Source of the DNA: Candidatus Dojkabacteria bacterium
Lineage (GTDB): Bacteria; Patescibacteriota; Dojkabacteria; J137
Direction: 5' to 3'
DNA: 64,000 bases
Assembly: GCA_041750555.1 (NCBI GenBank)
Contig: JBGSZB010000029.1
Coordinates: 672-64,671 of the forward strand
Shown here: positions 26,396-46,964 of the stretch, in pieces
Layout of the letters: every line of letters begins with the position of its first letter
Numbering within the stretch: position 1 is the first letter of the stretch
The notes under the pieces: generated by a model
The model's input: the letters and a program-made list of their open reading frames with translations, nothing else
Database searches by the model: none
What the model was told of the DNA's origin: nothing
Program-made: the position numbers and the translations under genes

Positions 26396-28522
26396 TTACC
26401 TTTTAACTAGTTTTACAGCTTTATACAGTACTGGATATTGCATTAACTTGGCCTTTAGTTTAGCCTTTAAGAAGTTTTTAGAGTAAGGATTAAATAGATC
26501 ATTTAAAAATCTTTTAGTAAAAAACAACCCTATACCCTTCATTGAATTACCTTTATTTCCTAATTCAAGTAAATATTTTTCAATATCTTCCCCATAATTA
26601 CTACTCAATTGTAAATTACTTGAAAATTTAAAAGCTTTATCTACTCTTTTTTTATCATTATCATTTAAAAGCTCATCAAAAGCCTTCTTTAATGAATTTA
26701 AATCTGAAGCATTAAATGTATATGCGGTTGTTTCATCTACAAAATCACTTAATCCACCTACCGTTGTTGAAATTAATGGTACCTTTAATAGCATTGCTTC
26801 AAATGCTGATCTACCAAAACCTTCTGATCTAGATGCATTTATCATGGCTTTACTTGATTTAATAATTTCAAATGGATTATCAATAAATCCTAAGAAATGT
26901 ATATATTCTTCTAACTTATATTTTTTAATTAATTCAAGAATTTTAGTATAGTAATCACTATTAACATCATATTCTCCAATTAAGAGTAAATGATATTTAT
27001 CACTATCTTTTGTTTTATTTAATGTATTAATTAATTCTATAGCATCAATTTGACCTTTATTCTCTTCAATTGAACCAAGGACTACTAATCTATTACTATT
27101 AAACACTTCATCATCTTTTGTTTTAAAGTAATTAACTATCTTTTTAATATCAACTAATTGATTTCTTTCATGAAATTGTTTTTCTAATACGTGTAAGTTT
27201 GGATATCTTTGTATTAAGACTTTTGTTCTCTCCTTAATAATTTTTTTCTTTTCTTCACCTATTACATCAAAAGATCTTCCTTCCCAATGATGTATATACA
27301 TATTTGTAGATACAATTATTCTATAGCCCTTATTCAATGCTCTCATTGATAAATCAACTTCTTCTCCATAACCTTTTCCAAAGTTATCTTCATCAAAGTA
27401 ACCTATATCATTCAAAAGAGATCTTTTAATATATGTACAATATCCATGAGTTGCATGAGTCTCTATATATTTGTAAGGGGAGAATAATTCTAGTGCTTTA
27501 TTAACAATTTCAGGGTTATTTTCAAACTCTTTATTAAATTGATCTGGAACAGAGTAATAACTTGCACTATTAGATAAACTTGTAGACATACAAATATTAT
27601 CATCTTGATAAACATTAGTTCTTAATTTATCTATCCAGTTAGAAGTAACAACTGTATCTGAGTTTAATAGTATTACATCATTAGCACTTGATAACTTCAT
27701 TCCTCTATTACAATTTTTAACAAATCCTAAGTTTTCTTCGTTTTCTAAATATACAAACAAATCATTATGCTTTTTTATCCAAGTTTCTACTCTCTCTCTT
27801 AATTCTAAATCTGGTCCTTTATCAAATATTACATATACTTTATCTAAGTGAGGTGATTTATGCTTTAAAACGCTCTCTAAGCACTCTAGAATACTATCAT
27901 CTTTGTAAAAGGGTATAACTACATCAACCTTTCTTTTCTCTTTAATAGGCTTTAAATTTTGATTTTCTACAACAATCCTATTTGTAATAACTGTGGAATT
28001 TTCATTAACTATCTCTTTGGTATAAATATCTTTAAGATAATTTGAAATATATATTACTCTTGAACTACTACTGTTAATGTAATTAGCAATATCATTTTGT
28101 GGAACTATTGGTGTATAAGTTGGGTTATCAATTATTGATTCTCTAATATGCCATATATGTGGCACATTTAAGAAAGTTGAAACCATTGCTCCTACATTTG
28201 TAACTGCAGTATTTGTATATATTAAATCTACCTTTTCACCCTTTAAAAAATTATATATGTTAATAGCTTGAGTTAATATATTCTGAAACTTTATATTGTT
28301 GTTAACATTCTTTTCCCATGATAAGTTTACCCAAAGATCAAAATAGAAATGAAAACATTTAACTCCAAGTTTTGTTGATTCTTCTAAAAGGGATCCACTA
28401 TCTTCTCTACTAATTAAAAGAATTTCGTGGTTTTTTGATTTTAAATATTTAATTAATTCAAATAGTGACTCTTCAGCTCCACCTGTTTTTCTTGCTCTTG
28501 GAGTTATTATTGCTATTTTCAT
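26396..28522 (-). CDS. Three-module glycosyltransferase (GT4 N-lobe, GT2, GT4)
   Basis: 708 aa. The N-terminus MKIAIITPRARKTGGAEESLFELIKYLKSKNHEILLIS is a GT-B N-lobe. The middle VDVVIPFYKDDSILECLESVLKH...DVILLNSD is a GT2/GT-A module. The C-terminus RSEGFGRSAFEAMLLKVPLISTTVGGLSDFV is the GT4 EX7E motif. Confidence 0.8.
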   Translation of the reverse strand: MKIAIITPRARKTGGAEESLFELIKYLKSKNHEILLISREDSGSLLEESTKLGVKCFHFYFDLWVNLSWEKNVNNNIKFQNILTQAINIYNFLKGEKVDLIYTNTAVTNVGAMVSTFLNVPHIWHIRESIIDNPTYTPIVPQNDIANYINSSSSRVIYISNYLKDIYTKEIVNENSTVITNRIVVENQNLKPIKEKRKVDVVIPFYKDDSILECLESVLKHKSPHLDKVYVIFDKGPDLELRERVETWIKKHNDLFVYLENEENLGFVKNCNRGMKLSSANDVILLNSDTVVTSNWIDKLRTNVYQDDNICMSTSLSNSASYYSVPDQFNKEFENNPEIVNKALELFSPYKYIETHATHGYCTYIKRSLLNDIGYFDEDNFGKGYGEEVDLSMRALNKGYRIIVSTNMYIHHWEGRSFDVIGEEKKKIIKERTKVLIQRYPNLHVLEKQFHERNQLVDIKKIVNYFKTKDDEVFNSNRLVVLGSIEENKGQIDAIELINTLNKTKDSDKYHLLLIGEYDVNSDYYTKILELIKKYKLEEYIHFLGFIDNPFEIIKSSKAMINASRSEGFGRSAFEAMLLKVPLISTTVGGLSDFVDETTAYTFNASDLNSLKKAFDELLNDNDKKRVDKAFKFSSNLQLSSNYGEDIEKYLLELGNKGNSMKGIGLFFTKRFLNDLFNPYSKNFLKAKLKAKLMQYPVLYKAVKLVKR

Positions 28523-28523
28523 T

Positions 28524-29714
28524 TTAATTTTTTGAAATATATTTTTGAATATCCCATGATTTATCTAGGGTTAATAACCCTCTGTCTTTGTTATCAACTT
28601 CACTCCTTTCTATATGAAACACTGTAGATCTTTTATCCATAAAAAGAACTTTATCATTATTTTCATCAAGAACTGCAACATCTACATAATAGTCACCTTC
28701 ACTTAGGTTTAAGTTTTTTAAAGTTAGATAAACTGAATCACATTCTACTAAGTTTGAAATGTTTGAAAAATTTGAAGTAGTTTCATAAATTAATAAATCA
28801 TCGTCTCTAGTTAAACTAAATTTTAAATTATAATTTTGTACTAATTTCTTATTCTGAATAGCTGCTCTTATGCTTAAATCATAATCCTTAATAATCTCTG
28901 CTCTTACTTTTGAAACTACAATATCATTGTCCACCCTGTCATATTTTTCTTCTTCTGCTTTTTGTAGCTTTTCAATTTCAAGTAAGGATTGACGATACTG
29001 ATCAATACCTGTTCTTGTATCTCCATCAAATATGACTTCTCCTTGGTTTAACCATACAACCCTATTACAGTATTTTTGAACTGAACCTAAACTGTGACTA
29101 ACATAAATAACTGTTTTACCCTGTTCAATTAGTTTATTTATAACTCCAATAGATTTAGATCTAAATGCACCATCACCTACTCCAAGTATTTCATCTAAAA
29201 TATATATATCAGCATCAGTTTGAATAGCTATTGAGAAAGCTAATCTAACCTTCATTCCACTTGAATAGTTTTTAACAGGTGTATGTATAAAGTCTCCTAA
29301 TTCTGAAAACTCTACAATATCGTTATATCTTTTTTTAATCTCCTTAGTTGTTAAACCTAAAATTGCTCCATTAAGAAATATATTTTCTCTACCAGATAGT
29401 TCTGGGTTGAATCCAACTCCTAATTCTAGAAAAGGAACCATTCTTCCATTAACCGTAACCTCTCCTCCTTTATCTGGACTATATATCCCTGCAATTACTT
29501 TTAAAAGTGTTGATTTACCACTACCATTTCTACCTATTATTCCAATAAACTCACCTTTTTTAATATCTAAATGAATATTTTTTAATGCATGAAAAGGTTT
29601 AGATTTACCTTGATTAAAAAGTGAAACAACTAGAGATCTTAATGTATCCTTTTTATTATCTGCTATAAAAAAGGATTTATTTAAATTTTTTATACTTACT
29701 GCTATATCATTCAT
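28524..29714 (-). CDS. ABC transporter ATP-binding protein, Wzt/TagH-like polysaccharide exporter with a C-terminal extension
   Basis: Walker A GRNGSGKSTLLKVIAG, the signature YSSGMKVRLAF and Walker B IYILDE. A C-terminal region of about 150 aa follows the NBD, as in Wzt glycan-binding domains. Confidence 0.85.
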   Translation of the reverse strand: MNDIAVSIKNLNKSFFIADNKKDTLRSLVVSLFNQGKSKPFHALKNIHLDIKKGEFIGIIGRNGSGKSTLLKVIAGIYSPDKGGEVTVNGRMVPFLELGVGFNPELSGRENIFLNGAILGLTTKEIKKRYNDIVEFSELGDFIHTPVKNYSSGMKVRLAFSIAIQTDADIYILDEILGVGDGAFRSKSIGVINKLIEQGKTVIYVSHSLGSVQKYCNRVVWLNQGEVIFDGDTRTGIDQYRQSLLEIEKLQKAEEEKYDRVDNDIVVSKVRAEIIKDYDLSIRAAIQNKKLVQNYNLKFSLTRDDDLLIYETTSNFSNISNLVECDSVYLTLKNLNLSEGDYYVDVAVLDENNDKVLFMDKRSTVFHIERSEVDNKDRGLLTLDKSWDIQKYISKN

Positions 29715-29717
29715 AGT

Positions 29718-30500
29718 TTAAAAATACTCAGCTACTCTTTTTATTCTTTTGTTAAAGAATGACCAACCTAAAATAAAGATAATTAATGATCCTAAAAAGA
29801 ATATTATTCCCTTTTCTACATCAATTGTTCCATATACTCCTAACGCTGCTCTTACCTGATTAATTAATATTCCTACAGGGTTATATTTTAATATATATGA
29901 CATAACGCCTCCACTCCCTAAAGGGAAACTTGAAAGTGTAAAAAATATTGGTGTTAACCAATAAAGTAAAAAGAAACCTAGATCTACAATGTTTTTTAAA
30001 TCTCTAAATCTAATTGAAACTATACTAAAAAAGAAAGATATTCCAAGACATGCAATAAATGCACTTATTGTTAAGAAGATAAAGTACGCAAGACCTCCTA
30101 ATGTAACTTGAATATTATTAGCTAATATAAAGATTACTATTAACAACATATTTATTACTAAATTGATAAGTGCATTAAATTGAGATGCAATAACAGCTAT
30201 TTGTCTTGGGAAATTAACTTTAAGAATAATTCCTGCCTTATCTAGTAAAGACATCATACCCAGGGTTACCATTTCAGTTATATATGTATAAAAGATTATT
30301 CCAGTTAGTAAATAAAGTGAGAAAAATTCAACATCGTCATTTTGTCTAATCCTACTCCATATTAGAAAAAGAACTATAAAAGTTGCATATGGCTTTATTA
30401 ATACCCATAAAACTCCTAGTACGGAGTTTTGATATCTCATCTTAAAGCTTGTTTTTATTAGTTCTTTTAAAAGTGTAAAAGAGTTACGTGTTTTAATCAT
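29718..30500 (-). CDS. ABC-2 type polysaccharide export permease (Wzm/TagG-like)
   Basis: 260 aa and 6 TM helices. It lies immediately upstream of the Wzt-like ATPase, with a 3-nt gap. Confidence 0.8.
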   Translation of the reverse strand: MIKTRNSFTLLKELIKTSFKMRYQNSVLGVLWVLIKPYATFIVLFLIWSRIRQNDDVEFFSLYLLTGIIFYTYITEMVTLGMMSLLDKAGIILKVNFPRQIAVIASQFNALINLVINMLLIVIFILANNIQVTLGGLAYFIFLTISAFIACLGISFFFSIVSIRFRDLKNIVDLGFFLLYWLTPIFFTLSSFPLGSGGVMSYILKYNPVGILINQVRAALGVYGTIDVEKGIIFFLGSLIIFILGWSFFNKRIKRVAEYF

Positions 30501-30547
30501 ATTACTTATCTTACAGGTTATTATACAATAGTAGATTTAATTAACAA

Positions 30548-31447
30548 CTATACCCTGAAAATTTTTAATCTCGAAATTATTGAATTTGAACGTATTAATT
30601 CTTTAGGTAAAGACATCCTTCCTTTTGAATTAAGAATCTTTATAGCTTCATAGTATTCTTTTGGTGATTTAAAATTTTTAATAAACCTTGATATTTCTTT
30701 GGTATTCTTAAAAGAATCAATTTCGCTTTTTTTCTCTGATATTTTGTTTTTTTTCATAAAATTTTCGAATTCATCTTTTACCTCATCTTTATCCAGCATT
30801 AATTTACCCTTAAAATCTCTCCCTATATTCAAACCAGCAAGCAGAATTTTAAAATCACTGTCGTTTTCTGATTCTCTTGACCAATAGCTTTCAAGTATAG
30901 AATTTACATCATCATGTTTTACACCATAGGTAAAGCCCTTTCGAAAGATATCTTCAAAATACTGTTCAAAATCATGAATTCCACAAACTACATCAGTAAT
31001 ATAATTATAATAACCATTCTTGTGCATTGATTTAATCATATGAGTTTCTGGTCTATTCTCATCAACTGATATATATTTCAGAGCTTCCGGTATGAAGCTT
31101 GTTCTATAAAATTTAATACCCCCAACCCTAACTCCACCAAAATACTTATCCAACATTGATGACTGTATTGTAAAAACTTTTTCGTTCTGTGTATTAGCAA
31201 TTTTTAAAAATTTAGTTAATACACCTTTAGCAATTAAAACATCTGCATCTATAACCATTGTCCATTTCTTATTAGCTTTTATACCTGCCTCCATTGAAGA
31301 ATATAGTGCCTTACTAAAAGGAAATTCGTTAATGACAAATATATTATTTTCATTACGCTCCTCTTCTAAAAGGGATATGCATAAATCTAATGTTCTCTCT
31401 TTTACCGATCTGATAACTATTAATACTTCCCTATCAAGATTCTTCAT
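30548..31447 (-). CDS. Hypothetical protein, possibly a GT-A-fold nucleotide-sugar transferase
   Basis: N-terminal VLIVIRSVKERTLDLC and a DxD-like WTMVIDADVLI. The assignment is weak. Confidence 0.3.
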   Translation of the reverse strand: MKNLDREVLIVIRSVKERTLDLCISLLEEERNENNIFVINEFPFSKALYSSMEAGIKANKKWTMVIDADVLIAKGVLTKFLKIANTQNEKVFTIQSSMLDKYFGGVRVGGIKFYRTSFIPEALKYISVDENRPETHMIKSMHKNGYYNYITDVVCGIHDFEQYFEDIFRKGFTYGVKHDDVNSILESYWSRESENDSDFKILLAGLNIGRDFKGKLMLDKDEVKDEFENFMKKNKISEKKSEIDSFKNTKEISRFIKNFKSPKEYYEAIKILNSKGRMSLPKELIRSNSIISRLKIFRV

Positions 31448-32304
31448 TTAATTGATCTTCTAAAATATACTTTTGTATCACTAATCTCTTTTCTTGGTAT
31501 TACCTTAGAAGTATTAATATCTACTACTTCATAATGAAGGTCATTTATTAAATCCCAAAGTTTCTCTGGGCTAAAGTAGTTAACGTGTTCCCAAGTATTT
31601 ATGCTTTTATCAAAAGGTCTCCCTTCCCTTATGCCATTAAGACTCCTTTCAAGTCTTTCTTGGGAATAATTAGGAACTATTATTAGTCCAATAAACTCAT
31701 CTGATAAGTACTTATCTATACTCGAAAGGATCTCTCTTGGATTAACAATATGTTCAAAAACTGCATTAGAAAAAAATATATTGTATTTTTTATCTGTGCT
31801 AAGCTCTTCAAAAGATTTAACACTATGGATACCTGTTTTATTCATATAATCTCTTTTTCTGTCATCATACTCAACAGTTGATACTTCGACTCCTGGAGCT
31901 GAAATATTCAAAGCAAAATCTCCCCATCCAGAACCAAACTCCAAAACCTCAAGTTTATCAGAGTTCTCTATTTTATCTTTAAATAGGTAACTAAATATCT
32001 CGACTTTCAAGATTGAGTAGAACAGTCTTTTTGAATTTTTAAATATCTTAGTCTTACTCTCATTAGCATCTATAATCTTTCCATATATTACAGACATTCC
32101 TTCCTCGTCAAGAACTTCAGAGGTGAATACAAACTTACATTTTCTACACTTTACTATATTTATTTCGTTAAGGTTAATAATATCACTTCTATAAATTGTT
32201 TCCCTATCTAAAGAAGGGTTAATATCAACAAAGTCTTTGTAATTCACAGATATTAGACAATCAAACTTGTTAGATTTACATAGAGGACAATTTCTTTTAA
32301 TCAA
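31444..32304 (-). CDS. SAM-dependent methyltransferase with an N-terminal Cys4 zinc ribbon
   Basis: CPLCKSNKF...CRKCKFVF is the zinc ribbon. VLEFGSGWGDFA is motif I. Both flanks overlap their neighbours by 4 nt. Confidence 0.7.
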   Translation of the reverse strand: MIKRNCPLCKSNKFDCLISVNYKDFVDINPSLDRETIYRSDIINLNEINIVKCRKCKFVFTSEVLDEEGMSVIYGKIIDANESKTKIFKNSKRLFYSILKVEIFSYLFKDKIENSDKLEVLEFGSGWGDFALNISAPGVEVSTVEYDDRKRDYMNKTGIHSVKSFEELSTDKKYNIFFSNAVFEHIVNPREILSSIDKYLSDEFIGLIIVPNYSQERLERSLNGIREGRPFDKSINTWEHVNYFSPEKLWDLINDLHYEVVDINTSKVIPRKEISDTKVYFRRSIK

Positions 32305-33989
32305 TTATTAACAAGCTCTTGAAATAAATTATTAAGTATATATATCTGTATCTTACCTTTGAAGTCATTAAATAACTCCCTCTTCCAAGATCCAAGAGGT
32401 ATACTAAAACCTTTTTTAGCCCTATTAATGATCTTATTTGGCAATATATCCTTGTATGCATACTTTAATAGGCCCTTCAGTTCTCCGTTCAAATATTTTA
32501 TTTCTTCTGGAACTGTAAACATATATTCAATAAGCTTTCTAGATTGTAGCGGAACTCTTACTTCTAGGGCTACAGACATTGAAACCCTGTCAACCTTTGT
32601 CAAAATATCACTTGGCAAATAAGTATTAAAATCCATATACTGAAGTCTTGTACGCAAAGGCAAATCTTTTTTATAATATTTTCTTATATACCAGTAGTCA
32701 TCATAATCCCTAGGAATGTTCCAGAGTTTTCTATACTCAAATTTTTCTTCTTTAGTTAAACCTGATATATGTTTAATATACAGAGTAAAGATATTATTAT
32801 CACTTAAAGTTGGATTAAATTTATCAATAAATATATTTTTCAACTTCTTACTTTCGTTCCAAATAGAGTTATACCATACATATCCCCCAAATATTTCATC
32901 ACCTCCGTCACCAGTCAATACAACAGTTGAATCTTTTCTTGCAAATTCTGAAACATAGTAGGTTGGGAATGCTGAAGTATCTGAGAAAGGTTCATCATAC
33001 CAACTTTTTAACTTTGAAAACAATGAGCTGATGTCTTTACTCTCCAAATATTTAACAGAGTGCTTAGTTTTAAACTTCTCTGAAACTAAAAGTGCATACT
33101 CAGTTTCATCTTTCTCATTATCCTTATATCCTATAGAATAAGTATTAAGTTGTTTCGTAAATTTTGAAGATGTAGAGACTACTATACTTGAATCCATACC
33201 TCCACTTAAGAAAAACCCAACAGGAACATCGCTGACTAGGTGGGAGCTGACTGACTCATCAATGATATTACGAATCTTATCTGCACATTCACTAAGATTT
33301 GAGTTGTTAAATTTAACACTCAAACTCCAATATTTATTTATTGAAAGAGATCCACTTCTTAAATTAAATCTAAGATAACTACCCGGTTCAAGCTTATATA
33401 CATTCTTGTAAGGAGTTTTAGGTTCGGGTATATAGTTATATGTTAAAAAATCATATAAAGCTGTTTTATCAATATCTAAAGAATTGTTTTTATGAAAATA
33501 TTGTAAAGACTTCAGTTCTGACCCCCAGGCAAGAGTATCTTTTATAAATGAATAGTATAGTGGTTTTATTCCAACCCTATCTCTTATGAGATATATATCT
33601 TTACTCTTAACATCATAAATAGATATTGAATACATCCCTTCAATTTTGGAAAGTAATTTTTCTATACCCCATTTCTTAAAACCATAGAGTACTACTTCAG
33701 AGTCTGACTCACTTTTAAACTTAAACTCATAGAGCTCCTCTCTTAACTCCTTATAATTATAAATTTCACCGTTAACACTTATCACTACTGTGTTGTTTTC
33801 ATCAAACATTGGCTGTTTACCGTTATCAGAAATATCTAGTATGCTTAATCTTCTATGTCCCATATATATATCCTCATCAGACCAATCACTCCATTGATCA
33901 GGCCCTCTATGTGACAATGTGTCTAGTGCATTCCTCGAGTGCTGGATATTTTTTTTATTAAAATTTGTATGACCAAATATTCCACACAT
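32301..33989 (-). CDS. Asparagine synthase (glutamine-hydrolysing) family amidotransferase (AsnB/WbpS-like)
   Basis: MCGIFG is the N-terminal nucleophile Cys2 of class II glutamine amidotransferases. The synthetase-domain PP-loop SGGMDSS is present. Confidence 0.9.
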   Translation of the reverse strand: MCGIFGHTNFNKKNIQHSRNALDTLSHRGPDQWSDWSDEDIYMGHRRLSILDISDNGKQPMFDENNTVVISVNGEIYNYKELREELYEFKFKSESDSEVVLYGFKKWGIEKLLSKIEGMYSISIYDVKSKDIYLIRDRVGIKPLYYSFIKDTLAWGSELKSLQYFHKNNSLDIDKTALYDFLTYNYIPEPKTPYKNVYKLEPGSYLRFNLRSGSLSINKYWSLSVKFNNSNLSECADKIRNIIDESVSSHLVSDVPVGFFLSGGMDSSIVVSTSSKFTKQLNTYSIGYKDNEKDETEYALLVSEKFKTKHSVKYLESKDISSLFSKLKSWYDEPFSDTSAFPTYYVSEFARKDSTVVLTGDGGDEIFGGYVWYNSIWNESKKLKNIFIDKFNPTLSDNNIFTLYIKHISGLTKEEKFEYRKLWNIPRDYDDYWYIRKYYKKDLPLRTRLQYMDFNTYLPSDILTKVDRVSMSVALEVRVPLQSRKLIEYMFTVPEEIKYLNGELKGLLKYAYKDILPNKIINRAKKGFSIPLGSWKRELFNDFKGKIQIYILNNLFQELVNN

Positions 33990-41499: not shown

Positions 41500-41526
41500 A
41501 TAAAAAAACCTCCATTTCTGGAGGTT
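41500..41526 (-). terminator. Rho-independent terminator on the minus strand, downstream of the LOG-methyltransferase gene
   Basis: aacctcca (41507-41514) / tggaggtt (41519-41526) with a tttc loop. It is followed on the minus strand by a run of seven T (complement of 41500-41506). Confidence 0.6.
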
Positions 41527-41637
41527 ATATATATTTATACAAATACAACCCCCAAATTAGAGGTTATGATGATTTAATTTGTTAGTTAATGTCTTATTCA
41601 TGCGAGTAATTATACAATGTTTCATAGATTTAACCAA

Positions 41638-42915
41638 TCACTGGCTTCTTTTTTTAAACACACCAATTAACCACTTATGACTTCTTTTAGTATGATCAAT
41701 CTTAATCATTTCTAACCCTACCTTAGATGCCCTTTGAGTTAACTCTTCAGGGGTAAATAAATGGTAAAACCTTTCAATAGTTGTATAACTTTTTTTAGAT
41801 CGCTCTGTTATCTCCCCTGTACCCTCTCTAACAACTGCATAAAGAATACCTCCATCCACTAATGCATCTGCAATTTTTTGAAATACAGCATCTAAATGTT
41901 CATTAGATACATGATGAATAGAATCTCTAGCCCATATTCCTTTAAATTTATTAACTCCAATATCTACTTTGACAATATCTCCTAATATAATTTCAGAATT
42001 AGGATTTTCAAATCTAGCAATGTTTACAAATTTAGAGCTAATATCTATACCTGTAAGTTTAAATCGCTCTGATAAATACTTTAAATCATACCCTGGACCA
42101 CAGCCAATATCTAACACTTGAGCTGGTGGATTAATCATAGAGATAAAATCATCTAATTGTTCTTGAGCTACAAGCTTTCCTGCATGCTCATTATGATATT
42201 GACTAGATACCCTATTGTATTCTTGTGCTAAGGATTTTGATCTATCAGAGATAACAAAAGCTAATTCATCTCCTTGAAAGTTCTTAGTTTTACAATTTTG
42301 AACTAATATTTCATGCTTAGTAATAATATCCAAGACTTCTTTAGCCGTATTTGCTTGATACAAAACAACTAATTCAGTTTCATCAATATACATGGACTTT
42401 TGAAAAGCTTCTATTAAAGGATCCCAGAAATCTCCGAAAAGTATTACAGGTTTATGACATCCATAGTACAACTTTGCTAAAGCCCAAACTAATCCAAGTT
42501 CAGAAATTGTACCTGTTCCACCTTTACAGACAACATAAGCATCCCCTTTTTCAATAAGGCCTAATGTTCTCATCATATAATTTGATGATGTTTCAGATTC
42601 ATCAACTACATTAGCCAAATTTTTACCTTCAAAAACAGAAGCTAATCTGGGTTCCCAATATACAGCAATAGTTTTACCACCGACACTTTCAGCTCCATCA
42701 GTTGCAGCTTTCATGATTCCAGGACCTCCTCCATTAACTATTGTAAATCCATTTTCAGCTAAATACTTAGAGGTTTCCCATACAGACTTATATATCACAT
42801 CATCTTCAGGGATCGCAGAATCACCAAAGAAGGTTATATTATTTATTAATCTATCCTTATGGTTTCCATTAGTTTCTCCATTTTCTCTTTTAGGTAATTC
42901 AACAACTGTTGGCAT
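41638..42915 (-). CDS. Fusion protein: LOG-family (TIGR00730, cytokinin-riboside-5'-phosphate phosphoribohydrolase-like) N-terminal domain plus class I SAM-dependent methyltransferase C-terminal domain
   Basis: LOG motifs GGGPGIMKA (GGGxGxM) and CKGGTGTISELGLVWALAKL (PGGxGTxxE). MTase motif I VLDIGCGPGYDL and a downstream acidic motif. Confidence 0.8.
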   Translation of the reverse strand: MPTVVELPKRENGETNGNHKDRLINNITFFGDSAIPEDDVIYKSVWETSKYLAENGFTIVNGGGPGIMKAATDGAESVGGKTIAVYWEPRLASVFEGKNLANVVDESETSSNYMMRTLGLIEKGDAYVVCKGGTGTISELGLVWALAKLYYGCHKPVILFGDFWDPLIEAFQKSMYIDETELVVLYQANTAKEVLDIITKHEILVQNCKTKNFQGDELAFVISDRSKSLAQEYNRVSSQYHNEHAGKLVAQEQLDDFISMINPPAQVLDIGCGPGYDLKYLSERFKLTGIDISSKFVNIARFENPNSEIILGDIVKVDIGVNKFKGIWARDSIHHVSNEHLDAVFQKIADALVDGGILYAVVREGTGEITERSKKSYTTIERFYHLFTPEELTQRASKVGLEMIKIDHTKRSHKWLIGVFKKRSQ

Positions 42916-43587
42916 TTAATTATTTAATAACTCATTTAAATTATTGTAGTCACTTAATAAATCTTTACTTTTTTGAAAATATGATCCAACACTAACTCTA
43001 TCAGGATTAGCTTTTCTTATCAAGTTTGCACTCTCCATATTTACACCTCCATCTAGTGAGATTTCTCCTTTAAACCCTATACTCCTTAATTGATCTGCCC
43101 TTTTAAGAGAGTCTTTATCAAAGGTTGATCCTTGTTTTCCTATGTCTATAGTCATTAACTGTATTTCATTAAATTTAGAATAAAAATCTAAATCTTTAAG
43201 AATACTATTTTTTTTAATAACTAAGCCAATTTTAAAAATGCTTAAAAACTCCTCTACTTCATCAATATCAGCTTCTTGATGAATATATATTCTTAAATTA
43301 TCAAACTCCTTAAACCCATTTAAAATTAAATATCTAATCTTCTCTATTGGATCTTTAACCATTAAGTGAATACCAATATCAAAGCTATTATTAATTACAC
43401 CACTATCTAATATATCTATCAAACTAATTGTATTATTATTTGCAAAATCAACTTCTGCAATATCTATATCTAAACTATTAAAAGTCTTTGTGTACTTAAG
43501 AAATAGCGAAATGAAATCATCAAAATCAGAAGTTAAAATAGCTGGTGTTATTTTAATCATACTTTTTATTTTACTTAAAAATATCAT
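42916..43587 (-). CDS. Ribulose-phosphate 3-epimerase-family TIM-barrel protein, divergent
   Basis: It is collinear with Rpe: ITPAILTSDF (compare IAPSILSADF), IGIHLMVKDP (compare VHLMV), LMTIDIGKQGSTF, ISLDGGVN and VGSYF. The first metal-ligand block (HFDVMD in E. coli) reads DIAEVD here. Confidence 0.55.
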   Translation of the reverse strand: MIFLSKIKSMIKITPAILTSDFDDFISLFLKYTKTFNSLDIDIAEVDFANNNTISLIDILDSGVINNSFDIGIHLMVKDPIEKIRYLILNGFKEFDNLRIYIHQEADIDEVEEFLSIFKIGLVIKKNSILKDLDFYSKFNEIQLMTIDIGKQGSTFDKDSLKRADQLRSIGFKGEISLDGGVNMESANLIRKANPDRVSVGSYFQKSKDLLSDYNNLNELLNN

Positions 43588-44271: not shown

Positions 44272-44652
44272 GTGAATGAAACTCAACAAAACATACTTGA
44301 TAACTACAAAAACCCGCAGAATTTTGGGGCTCCAAAAGGTAATAACTATATTACCTCAGAGAGTTCTAATGTTTCATGTGGCGACAGTATAAAAGTATAT
44401 ATAAAGCTTGATGGCGAAATAATATCTGATATTAAATTTACAGGAGAAGGATGTTCAATTGCTATCGCTTCTGCCTCTCTACTCTATCAAGATCTTAAAG
44501 GCAAAAATATTAATGAAGTTATTTCACTCGATAATGCTTATCCAGAAAAGGTTATGGGTATTGAACTAACACTATCTAGGAAAAAGTGTGCAATGCTAAG
44601 TCTTGAAGCTTTGAAAAAAGCGATAGGTAAAACGGGTATAGATATTAAATAA
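44272..44652 (+). CDS. sufU: SufU/IscU-type Fe-S cluster assembly scaffold / sulfur acceptor
   Basis: NILDNYKNPQN...SNVSCGDSIKVYIKLDGEIISDIKFTGEGCSIAIASAS has the three conserved Cys in the SufU arrangement. Confidence 0.8.
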   Translation: MNETQQNILDNYKNPQNFGAPKGNNYITSESSNVSCGDSIKVYIKLDGEIISDIKFTGEGCSIAIASASLLYQDLKGKNINEVISLDNAYPEKVMGIELTLSRKKCAMLSLEALKKAIGKTGIDIK

Positions 44653-44956: not shown

Positions 44957-45229
44957 ATGAATAAAGCAGATTTAGTAAACTACATCGCTAACAAAAGTGC
45001 AATGACAAAGAAAGATGTTGCTACTATGTTAGACGCAATGGTAGATGCTGTAGTTGCTACAGTTTCTAAAGGTGATGCAGTAACTCTAACTAACTTTGGT
45101 ACTTTCGTTTCTGTAAAAAGAAAGGCAAGTATTAAAAGAAACCCAAAGACAGGTGCTCCTGTTAAGGTTCCTGCAAAGAGTGTTCCAAGGTTTAGACCTG
45201 GAAAACATTTTAGAGAAGCTGTTGCTTAA
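44957..45229 (+). CDS. hup: HU-family DNA-binding protein
   Basis: MNKADLVNYIA...GDAVTLTNFGTFVSVKRKASIKRNPKTGAPVKVPAKSVPRFRPGKHFREAV is the canonical HU fold with the RNPKTG arm. Confidence 0.95.
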   Translation: MNKADLVNYIANKSAMTKKDVATMLDAMVDAVVATVSKGDAVTLTNFGTFVSVKRKASIKRNPKTGAPVKVPAKSVPRFRPGKHFREAVA

Positions 45230-45287: not shown

Positions 45288-46964
45288 TTATCTCAATTCT
45301 TCTAACTTAATTACAACCTTTCTATCCCTAAAATCATCTATATCTAAATTAAAAGCTATCTCGTAACCCTTAGATGTATTTATATCACGAGTTAAATCTC
45401 CTTTATTAAAACCTAAAAACTCAACTTCATTACCATCTCTATCGTATAGAATTCCTTTAACATGATTCCCTGTTGATCCCATACTTTTAATATTTTTAAA
45501 AAATATTTCACTAGAGTAGAGTAGTGGTTTTTTATTCCCAAACCCAAATGGTTGCATTAAATTAAATTTCTCTACAAAATTAATATCTACATCTTTAAAA
45601 TCTTTTAAAATACCATCTAGTATTAATTCTTTTTTAAATAACTCATCGTTTTTAAGATATACACTAAAATCTCTTTCTAATGCCTCTAGGAATGTTCCCT
45701 CATTTTTAATATCTAGAGTTAGTCCTGCAGCTTGAGAGTGACCTCCGTACCTTTTTAAGTTAGATTTTAAGCCATCTAGAAGTTCGGTTACATTAAAGTT
45801 TAATGGGTTTCTAACAGAAGCTTTAATTTCTTTACTTTTTAAATTCTTACTACCAATAATTACTGGTTTAAAATATTTCTCAGCTAATTTACCTGCTATA
45901 AGGCCAATAATGCCTTCTGACCAATCCTCTGAAGCTAAATAAATATATCCATTATCTAGATTTAACATCTTTTCTGCTTCATTTAGTGCTTTCTCTGTAA
46001 ATTCTTTTCTTTTTAAATTTAAAATTTCTAAATTTTTTGCAGTAGAGTAGGCTAAACTATCTGAATTAGTAGTTAAAAGCTTTACACCCTCTAATGCATC
46101 TCCCATTCTTCCTGAAGCATTAAGTCTTGGCCCTACAATATATCCAATATGATAAGTAGATAATTTATCTCTAATTCCTGCTATTTTTTTTAAATTAAAT
46201 AATCCTAAGTTTTTAGTATTGTTTAATTCTTTTAAACCAAGAGATACTATAACTCTATTTTCTTCAATTAATGGCATTACATCACAAACTGTTCCAATAC
46301 AAGCTAGCTCTAAATATTTATTAATATCTACATTTAATTTATTCTCAATTATTAATGCTTGTACAAGTTTAAACGCTACACTTGCCCCACAGAGTTGTTT
46401 AAAAGTTAGAGAAGAGAGTAGGGGGTGTATATTTGCAACTGACTTAGATGAAACTAAGTAACTATCTACAATCTTTGAGCCTTCAATATTAACTTCATCT
46501 GAACTTCTAATTGTATGGTGATCCGTTATTAAAAAATCAACTTTATCTGAATATTTATTTATTAACTCTATATCTTTTATCCCACAATCTACGGTAATAA
46601 TAACTTCAGCACCTTTTTGTATTAAAGATTCTATTGATTCTGTAGTTAAACCATATCCTTCATCAAAACGGGAAGGAATAAATGGCATTACATTAGCTTT
46701 TAATTCTCTGTATAAAAACTGCCATAGTATTGAGGTAGCGGTTATTCCATCTGCATCAAAGTCTCCATGTATATATATCTTTTTATTTTCTTTAATAGAT
46801 TTATTTATGAATTTAACAGCCTTCTTCATGTCACTAAATTCAAATGGATCTGATAAATCAGAGAGAGTAGGGTTATGAAATTTATCTCTATCTTTAATAC
46901 CTCTAGTGAAATAGATATATTCTAATAACGGCATGTCTTGTTGATCTGGGATTATCCATTCCAT
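45288..46964 (-). CDS. recJ: Single-stranded-DNA-specific exonuclease RecJ
   Basis: DHH-family motifs HGDFDADGITA, ITDHH (DHH) and the C-terminal DHHA1 GGHSQAAG. Confidence 0.9.
   Translation of the reverse strand: MEWIIPDQQDMPLLEYIYFTRGIKDRDKFHNPTLSDLSDPFEFSDMKKAVKFINKSIKENKKIYIHGDFDADGITATSILWQFLYRELKANVMPFIPSRFDEGYGLTTESIESLIQKGAEVIITVDCGIKDIELINKYSDKVDFLITDHHTIRSSDEVNIEGSKIVDSYLVSSKSVANIHPLLSSLTFKQLCGASVAFKLVQALIIENKLNVDINKYLELACIGTVCDVMPLIEENRVIVSLGLKELNNTKNLGLFNLKKIAGIRDKLSTYHIGYIVGPRLNASGRMGDALEGVKLLTTNSDSLAYSTAKNLEILNLKRKEFTEKALNEAEKMLNLDNGYIYLASEDWSEGIIGLIAGKLAEKYFKPVIIGSKNLKSKEIKASVRNPLNFNVTELLDGLKSNLKRYGGHSQAAGLTLDIKNEGTFLEALERDFSVYLKNDELFKKELILDGILKDFKDVDINFVEKFNLMQPFGFGNKKPLLYSSEIFFKNIKSMGSTGNHVKGILYDRDGNEVEFLGFNKGDLTRDINTSKGYEIAFNLDIDDFRDRKVVIKLEELR

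Follow-up and report, generated by a model that had tools for sequence, protein, structure and literature searches.

The LOG-type core of E. coli PpnN (YgdH) cleaves nucleoside monophosphates to base and ribose-5-phosphate, for a metabolic rather than a hormonal purpose. Three residues are essential in PaLOG (E74/R92/E115) and in PpnN (E223/R241/E264), and in BpLOG K121 is needed for substrate binding, the K121R mutant being nearly inactive. The S. islandicus LOG is active despite a changed first residue in its PGGxGTxxE motif, which there reads GGGxGTxxE. LOG cores are also found joined to other domains: PpnN carries accessory domains that respond to (p)ppGpp, whilst in the IPT-LOG chimeras of Claviceps purpurea and Rhodococcus fascians A21d2 the partner is an alkyltransferase. 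CPR bacteria such as the Dojkabacteria have a minimal metabolism and are thought to subsist on scavenged nucleotides; to our knowledge, the AMP-phosphorylase/RuBisCO pathway is the only route described in these bacteria for harvesting nucleotide ribose.

The window analysed here, a stretch of 64,000 nucleotides from a Candidatus Dojkabacteria contig, encodes a protein in which a LOG domain is followed by a class I SAM-dependent methyltransferase (MTase).

41638..42915, minus strand: LOG-MTase fusion gene, 425 aa, a single ORF with no internal stops and 100% identical to NCBI protein P0001
42316..42846, minus strand: LOG/SLOG domain, residues 24-200 (Pfam Lysine_decarbox and LDcluster4; PDB LOG matches)
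42166..42315, minus strand: inter-domain linker, residues 201-250, with a mean pairwise identity of 0.42 and low pLDDT in the model
42256-42273, minus strand: GDExAF patch in the linker, with E217 and F220 invariant and D216 present in 41/44 sequences
41650..42165, minus strand: class I SAM-dependent MTase domain, residues 251-422 (Pfam Methyltransf_25/23/11; pLDDT ~90; Foldseek)

The fusion is genuine and not an artefact. The initial annotation, which gave no strand, described the two halves as covalently joined and named a frameshift or stop between them as the mark of two separate genes; the 425-aa ORF runs through both without either. Both halves are present in one polypeptide in ~170 clusters among the matches listed, at 46-87% identity, and the fusion has been recovered independently in NCBI, JGI, ENA and Logan assemblies. 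An open frame of 1.3 kb is unlikely by chance, because the G+C content of the window is only 28.6%, and the fusion signal far exceeds chance. Nearly all of the named clusters with both halves belong to Candidatus Dojkabacteria, and the LOG-MTase architecture is lineage-wide in this group rather than rare. The initial annotation did not recognise it as a characterised architecture, and this stands to the extent that the literature searched holds no description of it and nothing relevant on LOG+MTase, Rpe-LOG or SLOG+MTase fusions. The source annotation of the fusion proteins is generic (‘methyltransferase domain-containing protein’), and a search of genome contigs with the single protein gave a weak Leptospirales LOG as its sole match. 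Four apparently MTase-only matches (P0121, P0122, P0143 and P0145) begin within the C-terminal helix of the LOG domain and were treated as fragments of fusions; P0145 clusters with the full-length fusion P0399.

Among 44 orthologs, the mean pairwise identity is 0.73 for the LOG half and 0.60 for the MTase half, against 0.42 for the linker, so that both halves are under constraint relative to the segment that joins them. Both also look intact for catalysis; the residues concerned in the LOG half are set out below.

42712..42732, minus strand: GGGPGIM nucleotide/phosphate-binding loop, residues 62-68, with G62-G66 and M68 invariant in alignments A1 and A4
42628..42630, minus strand: E96, counterpart of PaLOG E74 (the ligand of the ribose 2'/3'-OH), aligned with the conserved FE of 5zi9 and invariant in 44/44
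42568..42570, minus strand: R116, the putative catalytic Arg, aligned to the Arg of the RK pair in LOGs and followed by T117, both invariant
42499..42525, minus strand: KGGTGTISE, a variant of PGGxGTxxE with the putative catalytic E139; G132-T136, S138 and E139 invariant

The LOG half scores 50.1 bits against Lysine_decarbox (PF03641; gathering score 27) and 50.4 bits against LDcluster4 (PF18306; 26.3), and residues 26-176 match type II LOGs in the PDB (5zi9, E=3e-12). The two LOG signatures lie where the initial annotation placed them, GGGPGIM at residues 62-68 and KGGTGTISE at 131-139, and E96/R116/E139, which correspond to the essential triads of PaLOG and PpnN, are invariant in the fusion alignments. 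Two positions depart from the canonical pattern. The first residue of KGGTGTISE varies in the wider family (K/Q/R/L/P/V), and the Lys that follows the catalytic Arg is replaced by T117, the pair being RT throughout the CPR clade discussed below. The curated cut-offs are all missed, with 63 bits against 96.35 for TIGR00730, 37.6 against 106.9 for TIGR00725 and 33.5 against 300 for NF058542 (CtkRMPhLog). By these scores, and with K in place of P and T in place of K, the domain belongs to a divergent LOG subfamily.

The MTase half is equally well marked by conserved positions.

42091..42117, minus strand: SAM motif I, VLDIGCGPG, residues 267-275, with D269, G271 and G275 invariant in A1
41911..41937, minus strand: predicted post-beta4 catalytic loop, IWARDSIHH, residues 327-335, with W328 and R330 invariant; aligns with Plasmodium PMT IYSRD(A/S)ILH

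Its Pfam scores, 60.5 bits for Methyltransf_25 and 59 bits for Methyltransf_23 (cut-off 27), lie above the gathering score, and with motif I at residues 267-275 they agree with the earlier assignment to the class I MTases. The other refuting case named in the initial annotation, a common LOG extension with no MTase fold, does not apply, as Foldseek on the AF2 model gives RPA2492 (3e23) as its best match (TM 0.84, E=1.6e-15), with ToxA, DhpI, TylM1 and PMT also found. In the PDB, residues 248-392 match phosphoethanolamine N-methyltransferases and TylM1 by sequence. The stand-alone relatives form a very broad family of ~200 aa proteins that are 28-36% identical, and no NCBIfam equivalog was reached, the best being DVU_1556 at 42 bits against a cut-off of 155. 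In the wider family of 34 sequences the glycines of GxGxG are kept in 34/34 (G271), 32/34 (G273) and 33/34 (G275), and the acidic residue of motif II (D/E291) in 34/34. H335, kept in 30/34, is the apparent counterpart of the catalytic-loop His132 of PfPMT. A basic and aromatic pocket formed by W328, R330, R363, H413 and W415 is invariant, and R330, D331, H334 and H413 are specific to the fusion when compared with ~30 stand-alone relatives. The RD..HH loop and the invariant basic pocket suggest a phosphorylated or otherwise anionic substrate, and the pattern of conservation makes it very probable that the MTase half is catalytically active. In P0399, a divergent member, motif I is degenerate (VLMVGCAGS) and the H335Y change is present; a pseudo-enzyme reading based on it was rejected, P0399 being a lone outlier in the wider alignment.

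What the LOG half might be for is indicated by its genetic context.

42916..43587, minus strand: Rpe-like gene, 223 aa (Pfam Ribul_P_3_epim, 57.7 bits; PDB Rpe matches)
41507..41526, minus strand: hairpin resembling an intrinsic terminator, with an 8-bp stem containing 4 GC pairs, then TTTTTAT

The TAA stop codon of the Rpe-like gene directly abuts the ATG of the fusion gene, in the same frame. The encoded protein, a putative epimerase, has Asp in place of a His at its metal site. An Rpe-like gene lies immediately upstream of the fusion in six of the eight Dojkabacteria-type loci (the window, L001, L003, L004, L010 and L011) and is absent from the other two (L002 and L012). The in-frame arrangement itself, found at 4/6 loci, was discarded as a signal, not being significant (p ~0.1). 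The terminator that the initial annotation placed after the gene is represented by the hairpin ~110 nt past the fusion stop, which may be where the Rpe-like/LOG-MTase unit ends; the region holds 3 such terminator-like sites, against 0.8 expected from shuffles. Gene neighbours include Rpe, HisRS, NifU, HU and RecJ, and Pfam scans of 20 further ORFs of the window gave housekeeping and glycan-synthesis genes only. There are no Rfam matches in the window, no genes for RpiB, transketolase or PfkB in the window or L001-L004, and no conserved partner gene other than the Rpe-like gene among the Dojkabacteria-type loci compared.

A closer association with pentose-phosphate enzymes is seen elsewhere in the CPR. 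WWE3, Nomurabacteria and their CPR relatives encode more than 110 Rpe-LOG fusion proteins, whose LOG halves show 34-39% identity to that of the window and have in common with it the clade-specific motifs EGxxxxNxxD, RT and (F/C)xGGTGTxSE. These fusions are embedded in operons of RpiB, Rpe-LOG, split transketolase and PfkB, and the divergent LOG-MTase P0399 lies between an Rpe-like gene and a transketolase gene, with RpiB close by. The protein P0363 was considered as an RpiB-Rpe-LOG triple fusion and rejected, since translation with table 11 meets an in-frame stop, which the source gene call reads as Trp; its adjacency to RpiB still stands. No MTase, adjacent or fused, is present in the Rpe-LOG pentose-phosphate operons of WWE3 and Nomurabacteria, and the MTase is a lineage-specific addition to the LOG clade. 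According to one report (PMC5113843), glycolysis and the pentose-phosphate pathway are incomplete in Dojkabacteria. Because members of the LOG clade are joined to Rpe or lie next to it within non-oxidative pentose-phosphate operons, ribose-5-phosphate, not the base, is likely to be the valued product. The coupled hydrolysis and methylation in modified-base salvage put forward in the initial annotation stays a proposal; for the LOG half, the context of the clade points instead to ribose-5-phosphate.

We infer the following scheme. The LOG half would hydrolyse nucleoside 5'-monophosphates at the N-glycosidic bond, releasing the free base and ribose-5-phosphate, and the latter would be passed to the putatively co-transcribed Rpe-like enzyme and a non-oxidative pentose-phosphate module, the net effect being hydrolytic salvage of ribose from scavenged nucleotides. 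It is probable that the LOG half has phosphoribohydrolase activity and that this activity is linked to pentose-phosphate metabolism. The MTase half is probably a SAM-dependent small-molecule methyltransferase, and as a committed guess it would methylate the nucleotide substrate of the LOG half or the base that is released; that it acts on either is, taken by itself, rather doubtful. Flux of ribose-5-phosphate and coupling of the two halves are likewise predictions of the scheme. The reading as a whole, of a ribose-salvaging LOG with an intact MTase acting on its nucleotide or base, we regard as nearly an even bet, a little on the unfavourable side. Several considerations weigh against it, among them T117 in place of Lys, the score below the TIGR00730 cut-off, the reported gaps in glycolysis and the pentose-phosphate pathway of Dojkabacteria, the missing RpiB, transketolase and PfkB genes in the window and L001-L004, and the two loci that have no Rpe neighbour. 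Bulk catabolism would also be expensive if each nucleotide consumed one SAM, and the MTase may have no chemical tie to the LOG reaction, because the pentose-phosphate-linked Rpe-LOG proteins manage without one.

The latter point leads to the possibility that the halves work independently, the LOG in ribose or nucleotide turnover and the MTase on an unrelated small molecule, RNA or protein, their fusion being a capture of convenience in a compact genome. We consider this possible, if on balance unlikely. It would fit the breadth of the stand-alone MTase family, the homologous operons of WWE3 and Nomurabacteria that do without an MTase, a best structural match that is the uncharacterised protein RPA2492, and the lack of further conserved partner genes at the loci compared. 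Independent halves sit less comfortably with a fusion that is kept without exception in the ~170 clusters among the matches listed, down to 46% identity, the apparent MTase-only matches looking like fragments. Nor would they readily account for the invariant ExxF patch in a linker that is otherwise variable, or for the gain of R330, D331, H334 and H413, which are specific to the fusion, in and around the active-site loop.

A biosynthetic role can also be envisaged, with alkylation preceding cleavage: a purine nucleotide such as AMP would be N-methylated by the MTase (at N6 in that case), after which the LOG half would free the methylated base as a signal or effector, making the protein a methyl analogue of IPT-LOG. 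Besides the IPT-LOG chimeras themselves, this draws on the preference of some LOGs for N6-substituted AMP over AMP, on the production of 6-O-methylguanine by BpLOG in vivo, and on the resemblance of the MTase loop to those of the N-methyltransferases PMT and TylM1. Such an order of events is improbable, however, given that the LOG clade as a whole occurs in a pentose-phosphate setting, which favours ribose-5-phosphate as the useful product, and that the canonical substrate-binding Lys is missing. A more elaborate form earns just as little credence: an N-methylated purine nucleotide, for example N6-methyl-AMP or an N7/N3-methyl derivative with an activated glycosidic bond, would be cleaved by the LOG half, the methylated base would act as a diffusible signal or effector towards the host of the episymbiont, and the ribose-5-phosphate would be recycled via the Rpe-like enzyme.

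It is very unlikely that the MTase fold serves only to regulate or scaffold, controlling the LOG nucleosidase by sensing SAM or SAH or by oligomerisation. PpnN offers a precedent for a LOG core governed by accessory domains, and the degenerate motif I and H335Y of P0399 would fit such a role. Yet P0399 is the sole outlier, GxGxG being kept in 32-33/34 and the acidic residue of motif II in all 34 sequences, and the invariance of R330, R363, H413 and W415 is a pattern typical of an active enzyme. The notion that there is no enzyme pair at all, the gene being an assembly or frameshift chimera or its SLOG half a non-catalytic defence ligand sensor as in ThsA, is highly improbable and essentially already refuted: SLOG domains are reported to serve as Thoeris sensors, and there is a weak PADLOC match to PsyrA (E=0.0012), but the fusion recurs in independent assemblies, the catalytic triad is invariant, the only PADLOC match of note is to a generic MTase (mad2), the neighbours are housekeeping and pentose-phosphate genes, and neither PADLOC defence-system models nor the neighbourhood gave a defence signal at the locus.

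If the two activities are coupled, the protein would be the first bifunctional enzyme to pair a methyltransferase with LOG. More broadly, the CPR-wide LOG clade with its Rpe, RpiB and transketolase associations suggests that nucleotide ribose enters central carbon metabolism by a second route, a hydrolytic one, of which no description was found in the literature searched, and at this node the Dojkabacteria-specific MTase would add a SAM-dependent step. The protein is compact and easily expressed, and its activities are open to direct test.

With the LOG/TIGR00730 proteins (type II 5zi9 and 5wq3; PaLOG 5zbk) the fusion has in common PF03641, a GGGxGxM loop, a catalytic triad of Glu, Arg and Glu, and a GGxGTxxE core, but it falls below the TIGR00730 cut-off, its second motif has K/Q/R where P is expected at the start, the substrate-binding Lys is exchanged for Thr, and it has a clade-specific FEGxNxxNxxD segment, a C-terminal MTase and no cytokinin (IPT) context. 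PpnN is likewise a LOG-type core with added domains, but these (DUF4478 and DUF3412) are alarmone-binding regulators and not an enzyme, the likeness being one of core type and metabolic purpose. In IPT-LOG a group-transfer enzyme is joined to LOG, as here, but the transferase is a DMAPP-using prenyltransferase for cytokinins rather than a SAM-dependent MTase. The best sequence matches of the MTase half are the phosphoethanolamine N-methyltransferases PfPMT (3uj6) and PvPMT (4mwz), with which it has an SRDxILH-type loop in common (ARDSIHH here). Identity is ~20% (E=1e-10) over the SAM core only, the C-terminal lid cannot be confidently aligned and the phosphate-binding Tyr and Lys of PMT are not identifiable; the MTase half was therefore not classed as a PMT, because the similarity is limited to the core and the lid is unconserved.

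The Rpe-LOG proteins of WWE3 and Nomurabacteria belong to the same LOG clade, and the order of their two parts, Rpe then LOG, mirrors that of the Rpe-like and fusion genes in the window. In those proteins Rpe and LOG form one polypeptide that has no MTase, whereas in the window the Rpe-like protein has a gene of its own upstream and it is the MTase that is attached to LOG. These proteins are uncharacterised and appear in the sources as ‘ribulose-phosphate 3-epimerase’ or ‘LOG family protein’. Finally, the pathway of AMP phosphorylase, R15P isomerase and form II/III RuBisCO resembles our proposal in harvesting ribose within a minimal metabolism, including that of Dojkabacteria (PMC5113843). That route is phosphorolytic and leads to ribose-1,5-bisphosphate, whereas the one proposed here would be hydrolytic and deliver ribose-5-phosphate for use by Rpe, RpiB and transketolase.

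The initial annotation had read 41638..42915 as a single frame joining a LOG phosphoribohydrolase (PF03641/TIGR00730 family) to a SAM-dependent methyltransferase (MTase), and the gene, on the minus strand, is indeed one 425-aa ORF without an internal stop. The two N-terminal LOG signatures, the GCGPG motif I of the C-terminal half and the terminator after the gene that it had pointed out are all present:

42712-42732, - strand, GGGPGIM, residues 62-68
42499-42525, - strand, KGGTGTISE, residues 131-139
42091-42117, - strand, VLDIGCGPG, residues 267-275
41526..41507, - strand, terminator (hairpin and T-run) 3' of the fusion gene

Between the fusion stop and this terminator there is a second, weaker terminator-like hairpin (41545-41567 (-); 10 pairs, 3 GC). 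The Pfam families Lysine_decarbox/LDcluster4 cover residues 27-196 and Methyltransf_25/23/11 residues 257-405, in each case above gathering scores, which bears out the class I MTase assignment. PDB sequence searches match the N-terminal half to type II LOG phosphoribohydrolases and the C-terminal half to phosphoethanolamine N-methyltransferases, TylM1 and RPA2492. Pairwise identity among 44 orthologs averages 0.73 over the LOG domain and 0.60 over the MTase domain, and drops to 0.42 in the linker; the relative orientation of the domains is not confidently modelled (AF2, pTM 0.49).

The fusion is widespread and is not an artefact. An NCBI entry encoded on a 72-kb contig matches the window protein at 100% identity, and both Pfam sets are present in all of the at least 120 clusters listed (59-87% identity). 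Starting from a divergent member, another search gave at least 51 further clusters, 46-61% identical to the window protein. Apart from one Doudnabacteria and one 'bacterium', the named sources are Candidatus Dojkabacteria; the proteins carry no annotation beyond 'methyltransferase domain-containing protein' or 'TIGR00725 family'. When 50%-identity representatives were searched exhaustively, the fusion cluster P0037 was the sole full-length match among the 150 listed, the remainder covering one half only. The apparent MTase-only matches P0121, P0122, P0143 and P0145 start within the final helix of the LOG domain and look like fragments of fusions, not separate genes; P0145 falls into one cluster with the divergent full-length fusion protein P0399.

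The LOG half retains E96/R116/E139, invariant in the 44 orthologs and counterparts of the experimentally established catalytic triads of PaLOG (E74/R92/E115) and PpnN (E223/R241/E264). The first residue of its second signature is K in the window protein and Q/R/L/P/V elsewhere in the wider family, a variation that is probably harmless, since an active archaeal LOG carries GGGxGTxxE. Thr invariably follows the catalytic Arg, in place of the Lys of canonical LOGs, which BpLOG needs for substrate binding; this change may shift specificity. Fold, loop and catalytic triad are those of a LOG, while the RK feature is lacking and the score falls below the curated TIGR00730 HMM cut-off, which makes this half a divergent branch of the LOG family and not a canonical LOG.

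The C-terminal half is a genuine class I MTase, though not demonstrably a phosphoethanolamine methyltransferase (PMT). In 34 diverse members, GxGxG is kept in 32-33, the motif II acidic residue in all, and W328, R330, R363, H413 and W415 are invariant. The only degenerate sequence seen in the fusion family is P0399, which has VLMVGCAGS at SAM motif I together with H335Y. The domain is modelled confidently (AF2, pLDDT ~90), and its best structural match in Foldseek is RPA2492 (3e23, TM 0.84), itself uncharacterised, followed by the small-molecule MTases ToxA, DhpI, TylM1, PMT and RebM-like enzymes. The post-beta4 loop, IWARDSIHH, aligns with IYSRD(A/S)ILH of Plasmodium PMT. Since this loop is WAxASLLH in about 30 stand-alone relatives, R330, D331 and H334 are specific to the fusion, as is H413; the four are described as gains of basic or His residues. 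Such residues suggest an anionic, possibly phosphorylated, acceptor.

The main new evidence on the fusion comes from gene context. Directly upstream lies a gene of the ribulose-phosphate 3-epimerase (Rpe) family:

42916..43587, - strand, Rpe-like gene

This gene also directly precedes the fusion in five other Dojkabacteria-type loci (L001, L003, L004, L010, L011), where the other neighbours differ. Among the loci of this type examined it is absent only from L002 and L012, in which the 16S and the 23S-5S rRNA genes flank the fusion gene; the 16S-23S interval, of about 5-7 kb, also carries further protein genes and, in each locus, two tRNA genes:

L002 2207-12012, rRNA-flanked locus, fusion on the opposite strand
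L012 2197-13299, rRNA-flanked locus, fusion on the opposite strand

In the window the Rpe-like TAA stop adjoins the fusion ATG in the same reading frame (42913-42918). The two share a frame in L001, L003 and L011 as well, and are out of frame in L004 and L010; four of six loci (p ~0.1) would fit either the splitting of an ancestral Rpe-LOG gene or chance. No other pentose-phosphate pathway (PPP) gene lies near the fusion in the window or L001-L004. HisRS is found downstream in the window, L001, L010 and L011, and a block upstream of the Rpe-like gene is syntenic in the window, L001 and L010:

43614-44216, + strand, unknown 200-aa protein, reads as a membrane protein, without Pfam match
44272-44652, + strand, NifU
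44957-45229, + strand, HU-like gene
45288-46964, - strand, RecJ

Elsewhere in the window (28.6% G+C), a cell-surface glycan cluster unrelated to the fusion (26396-33989 (-)) holds a multi-domain GT4/GT2 glycosyltransferase, a Wzt-type ABC transporter pair, an asparagine-synthase-like gene and a second Methyltransf_23 protein (31444-32304). No Rfam family scored above gathering in 1-64000, and hence there were no tRNA, rRNA or riboswitch matches.

In some other CPR bacteria Rpe and LOG are joined in one protein. The single-domain match P0142 is an Rpe-LOG fusion, and a search with it gave more than 110 such proteins of ~400 aa, with source names WWE3, Nomurabacteria and 'bacterium'. Their LOG halves share with the window LOG the clade-specific features RT, xGGTGTxSE and (Y/F)EGxxxxNxxD, and one Rpe-LOG protein gives one continuous tblastn HSP that covers both the Rpe-like gene and the LOG domain of the window. 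The Rpe-LOG gene is second in a conserved operon, after RpiB and before transketolase N, a small unknown ORF, transketolase C and a PfkB kinase; then comes FBP aldolase or a 2-hydroxyacid dehydrogenase. The transketolase is split at L006 8317-10743, L007 7312-9729, L008 3982-5898 and L009 7227-10043; the conserved intervening ORF, without Pfam match, has 173-183 aa in L006-L008 and 340 aa in L009, and starts with a hydrophobic, membrane-like stretch in L006 and L007. P0363 (554 aa, L008 2315-3979) is not an RpiB-Rpe-LOG triple fusion, as its in-frame stop under table 11 was read as Trp in the source's gene call.

The P0399 locus (L009 6001-7218) connects the two arrangements: an Rpe-like gene lies one gene upstream, transketolase N/C on the other side and RpiB further upstream. 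This position suggests that P0399, whose nearest database relative is 57% identical, may show the fusion at an early stage or in decay. In the window's Rpe-like protein, Asp replaces the first metal-ligand His of the HxD motif (DIDIAEVDF; 42916-43587 (-)), and WWE3 Rpe-LOG fusions have Gln there (IQIDVCDG; L006 6001-7197). HLMV and DGG are kept. The Rpe-like proteins may be genuine epimerases whose metal site has changed, or may have a different sugar phosphate as substrate.

Most economically, the CPR LOG clade would hydrolyse nucleoside monophosphates to base and ribose-5-phosphate, in genetic association with enzymes handling pentose phosphates. In Dojkabacteria, Rpe is a separate gene, apparently co-transcribed with the fusion, and the LOG has acquired an MTase domain, predicted to be active. 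The nucleotide, or the base set free from it, is tentatively proposed as the target of this domain; the main rival, an unrelated acceptor, is likewise possible. A biosynthetic 'methylate-then-cleave' role, analogous to IPT-LOG chimeras and to the methylated product of BpLOG, is rather improbable. The conserved catalytic motifs make a purely regulatory role for the MTase fold unlikely.

The fusion is conserved, easily tested and informative on CPR nucleotide-ribose metabolism, though not categorically new. The architecture had not been recognised as characterised in the initial annotation, and neither a LOG-MTase nor an Rpe-LOG protein is described in the literature searched. As a caveat to the pentose-phosphate reading, Dojkabacteria reportedly lack a complete PPP and glycolysis (PMC5113843). 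An AMP-phosphorylase/RuBisCO nucleoside pathway has been proposed for CPR bacteria, Dojkabacteria included; the proposed LOG route would be its hydrolytic counterpart. LOG fusions are known in the IPT-LOG chimeras, and in PpnN a LOG-type core is joined to regulatory domains; the fusion protein is predicted to work like a LOG/PpnN-type nucleosidase combined with a small-molecule MTase.
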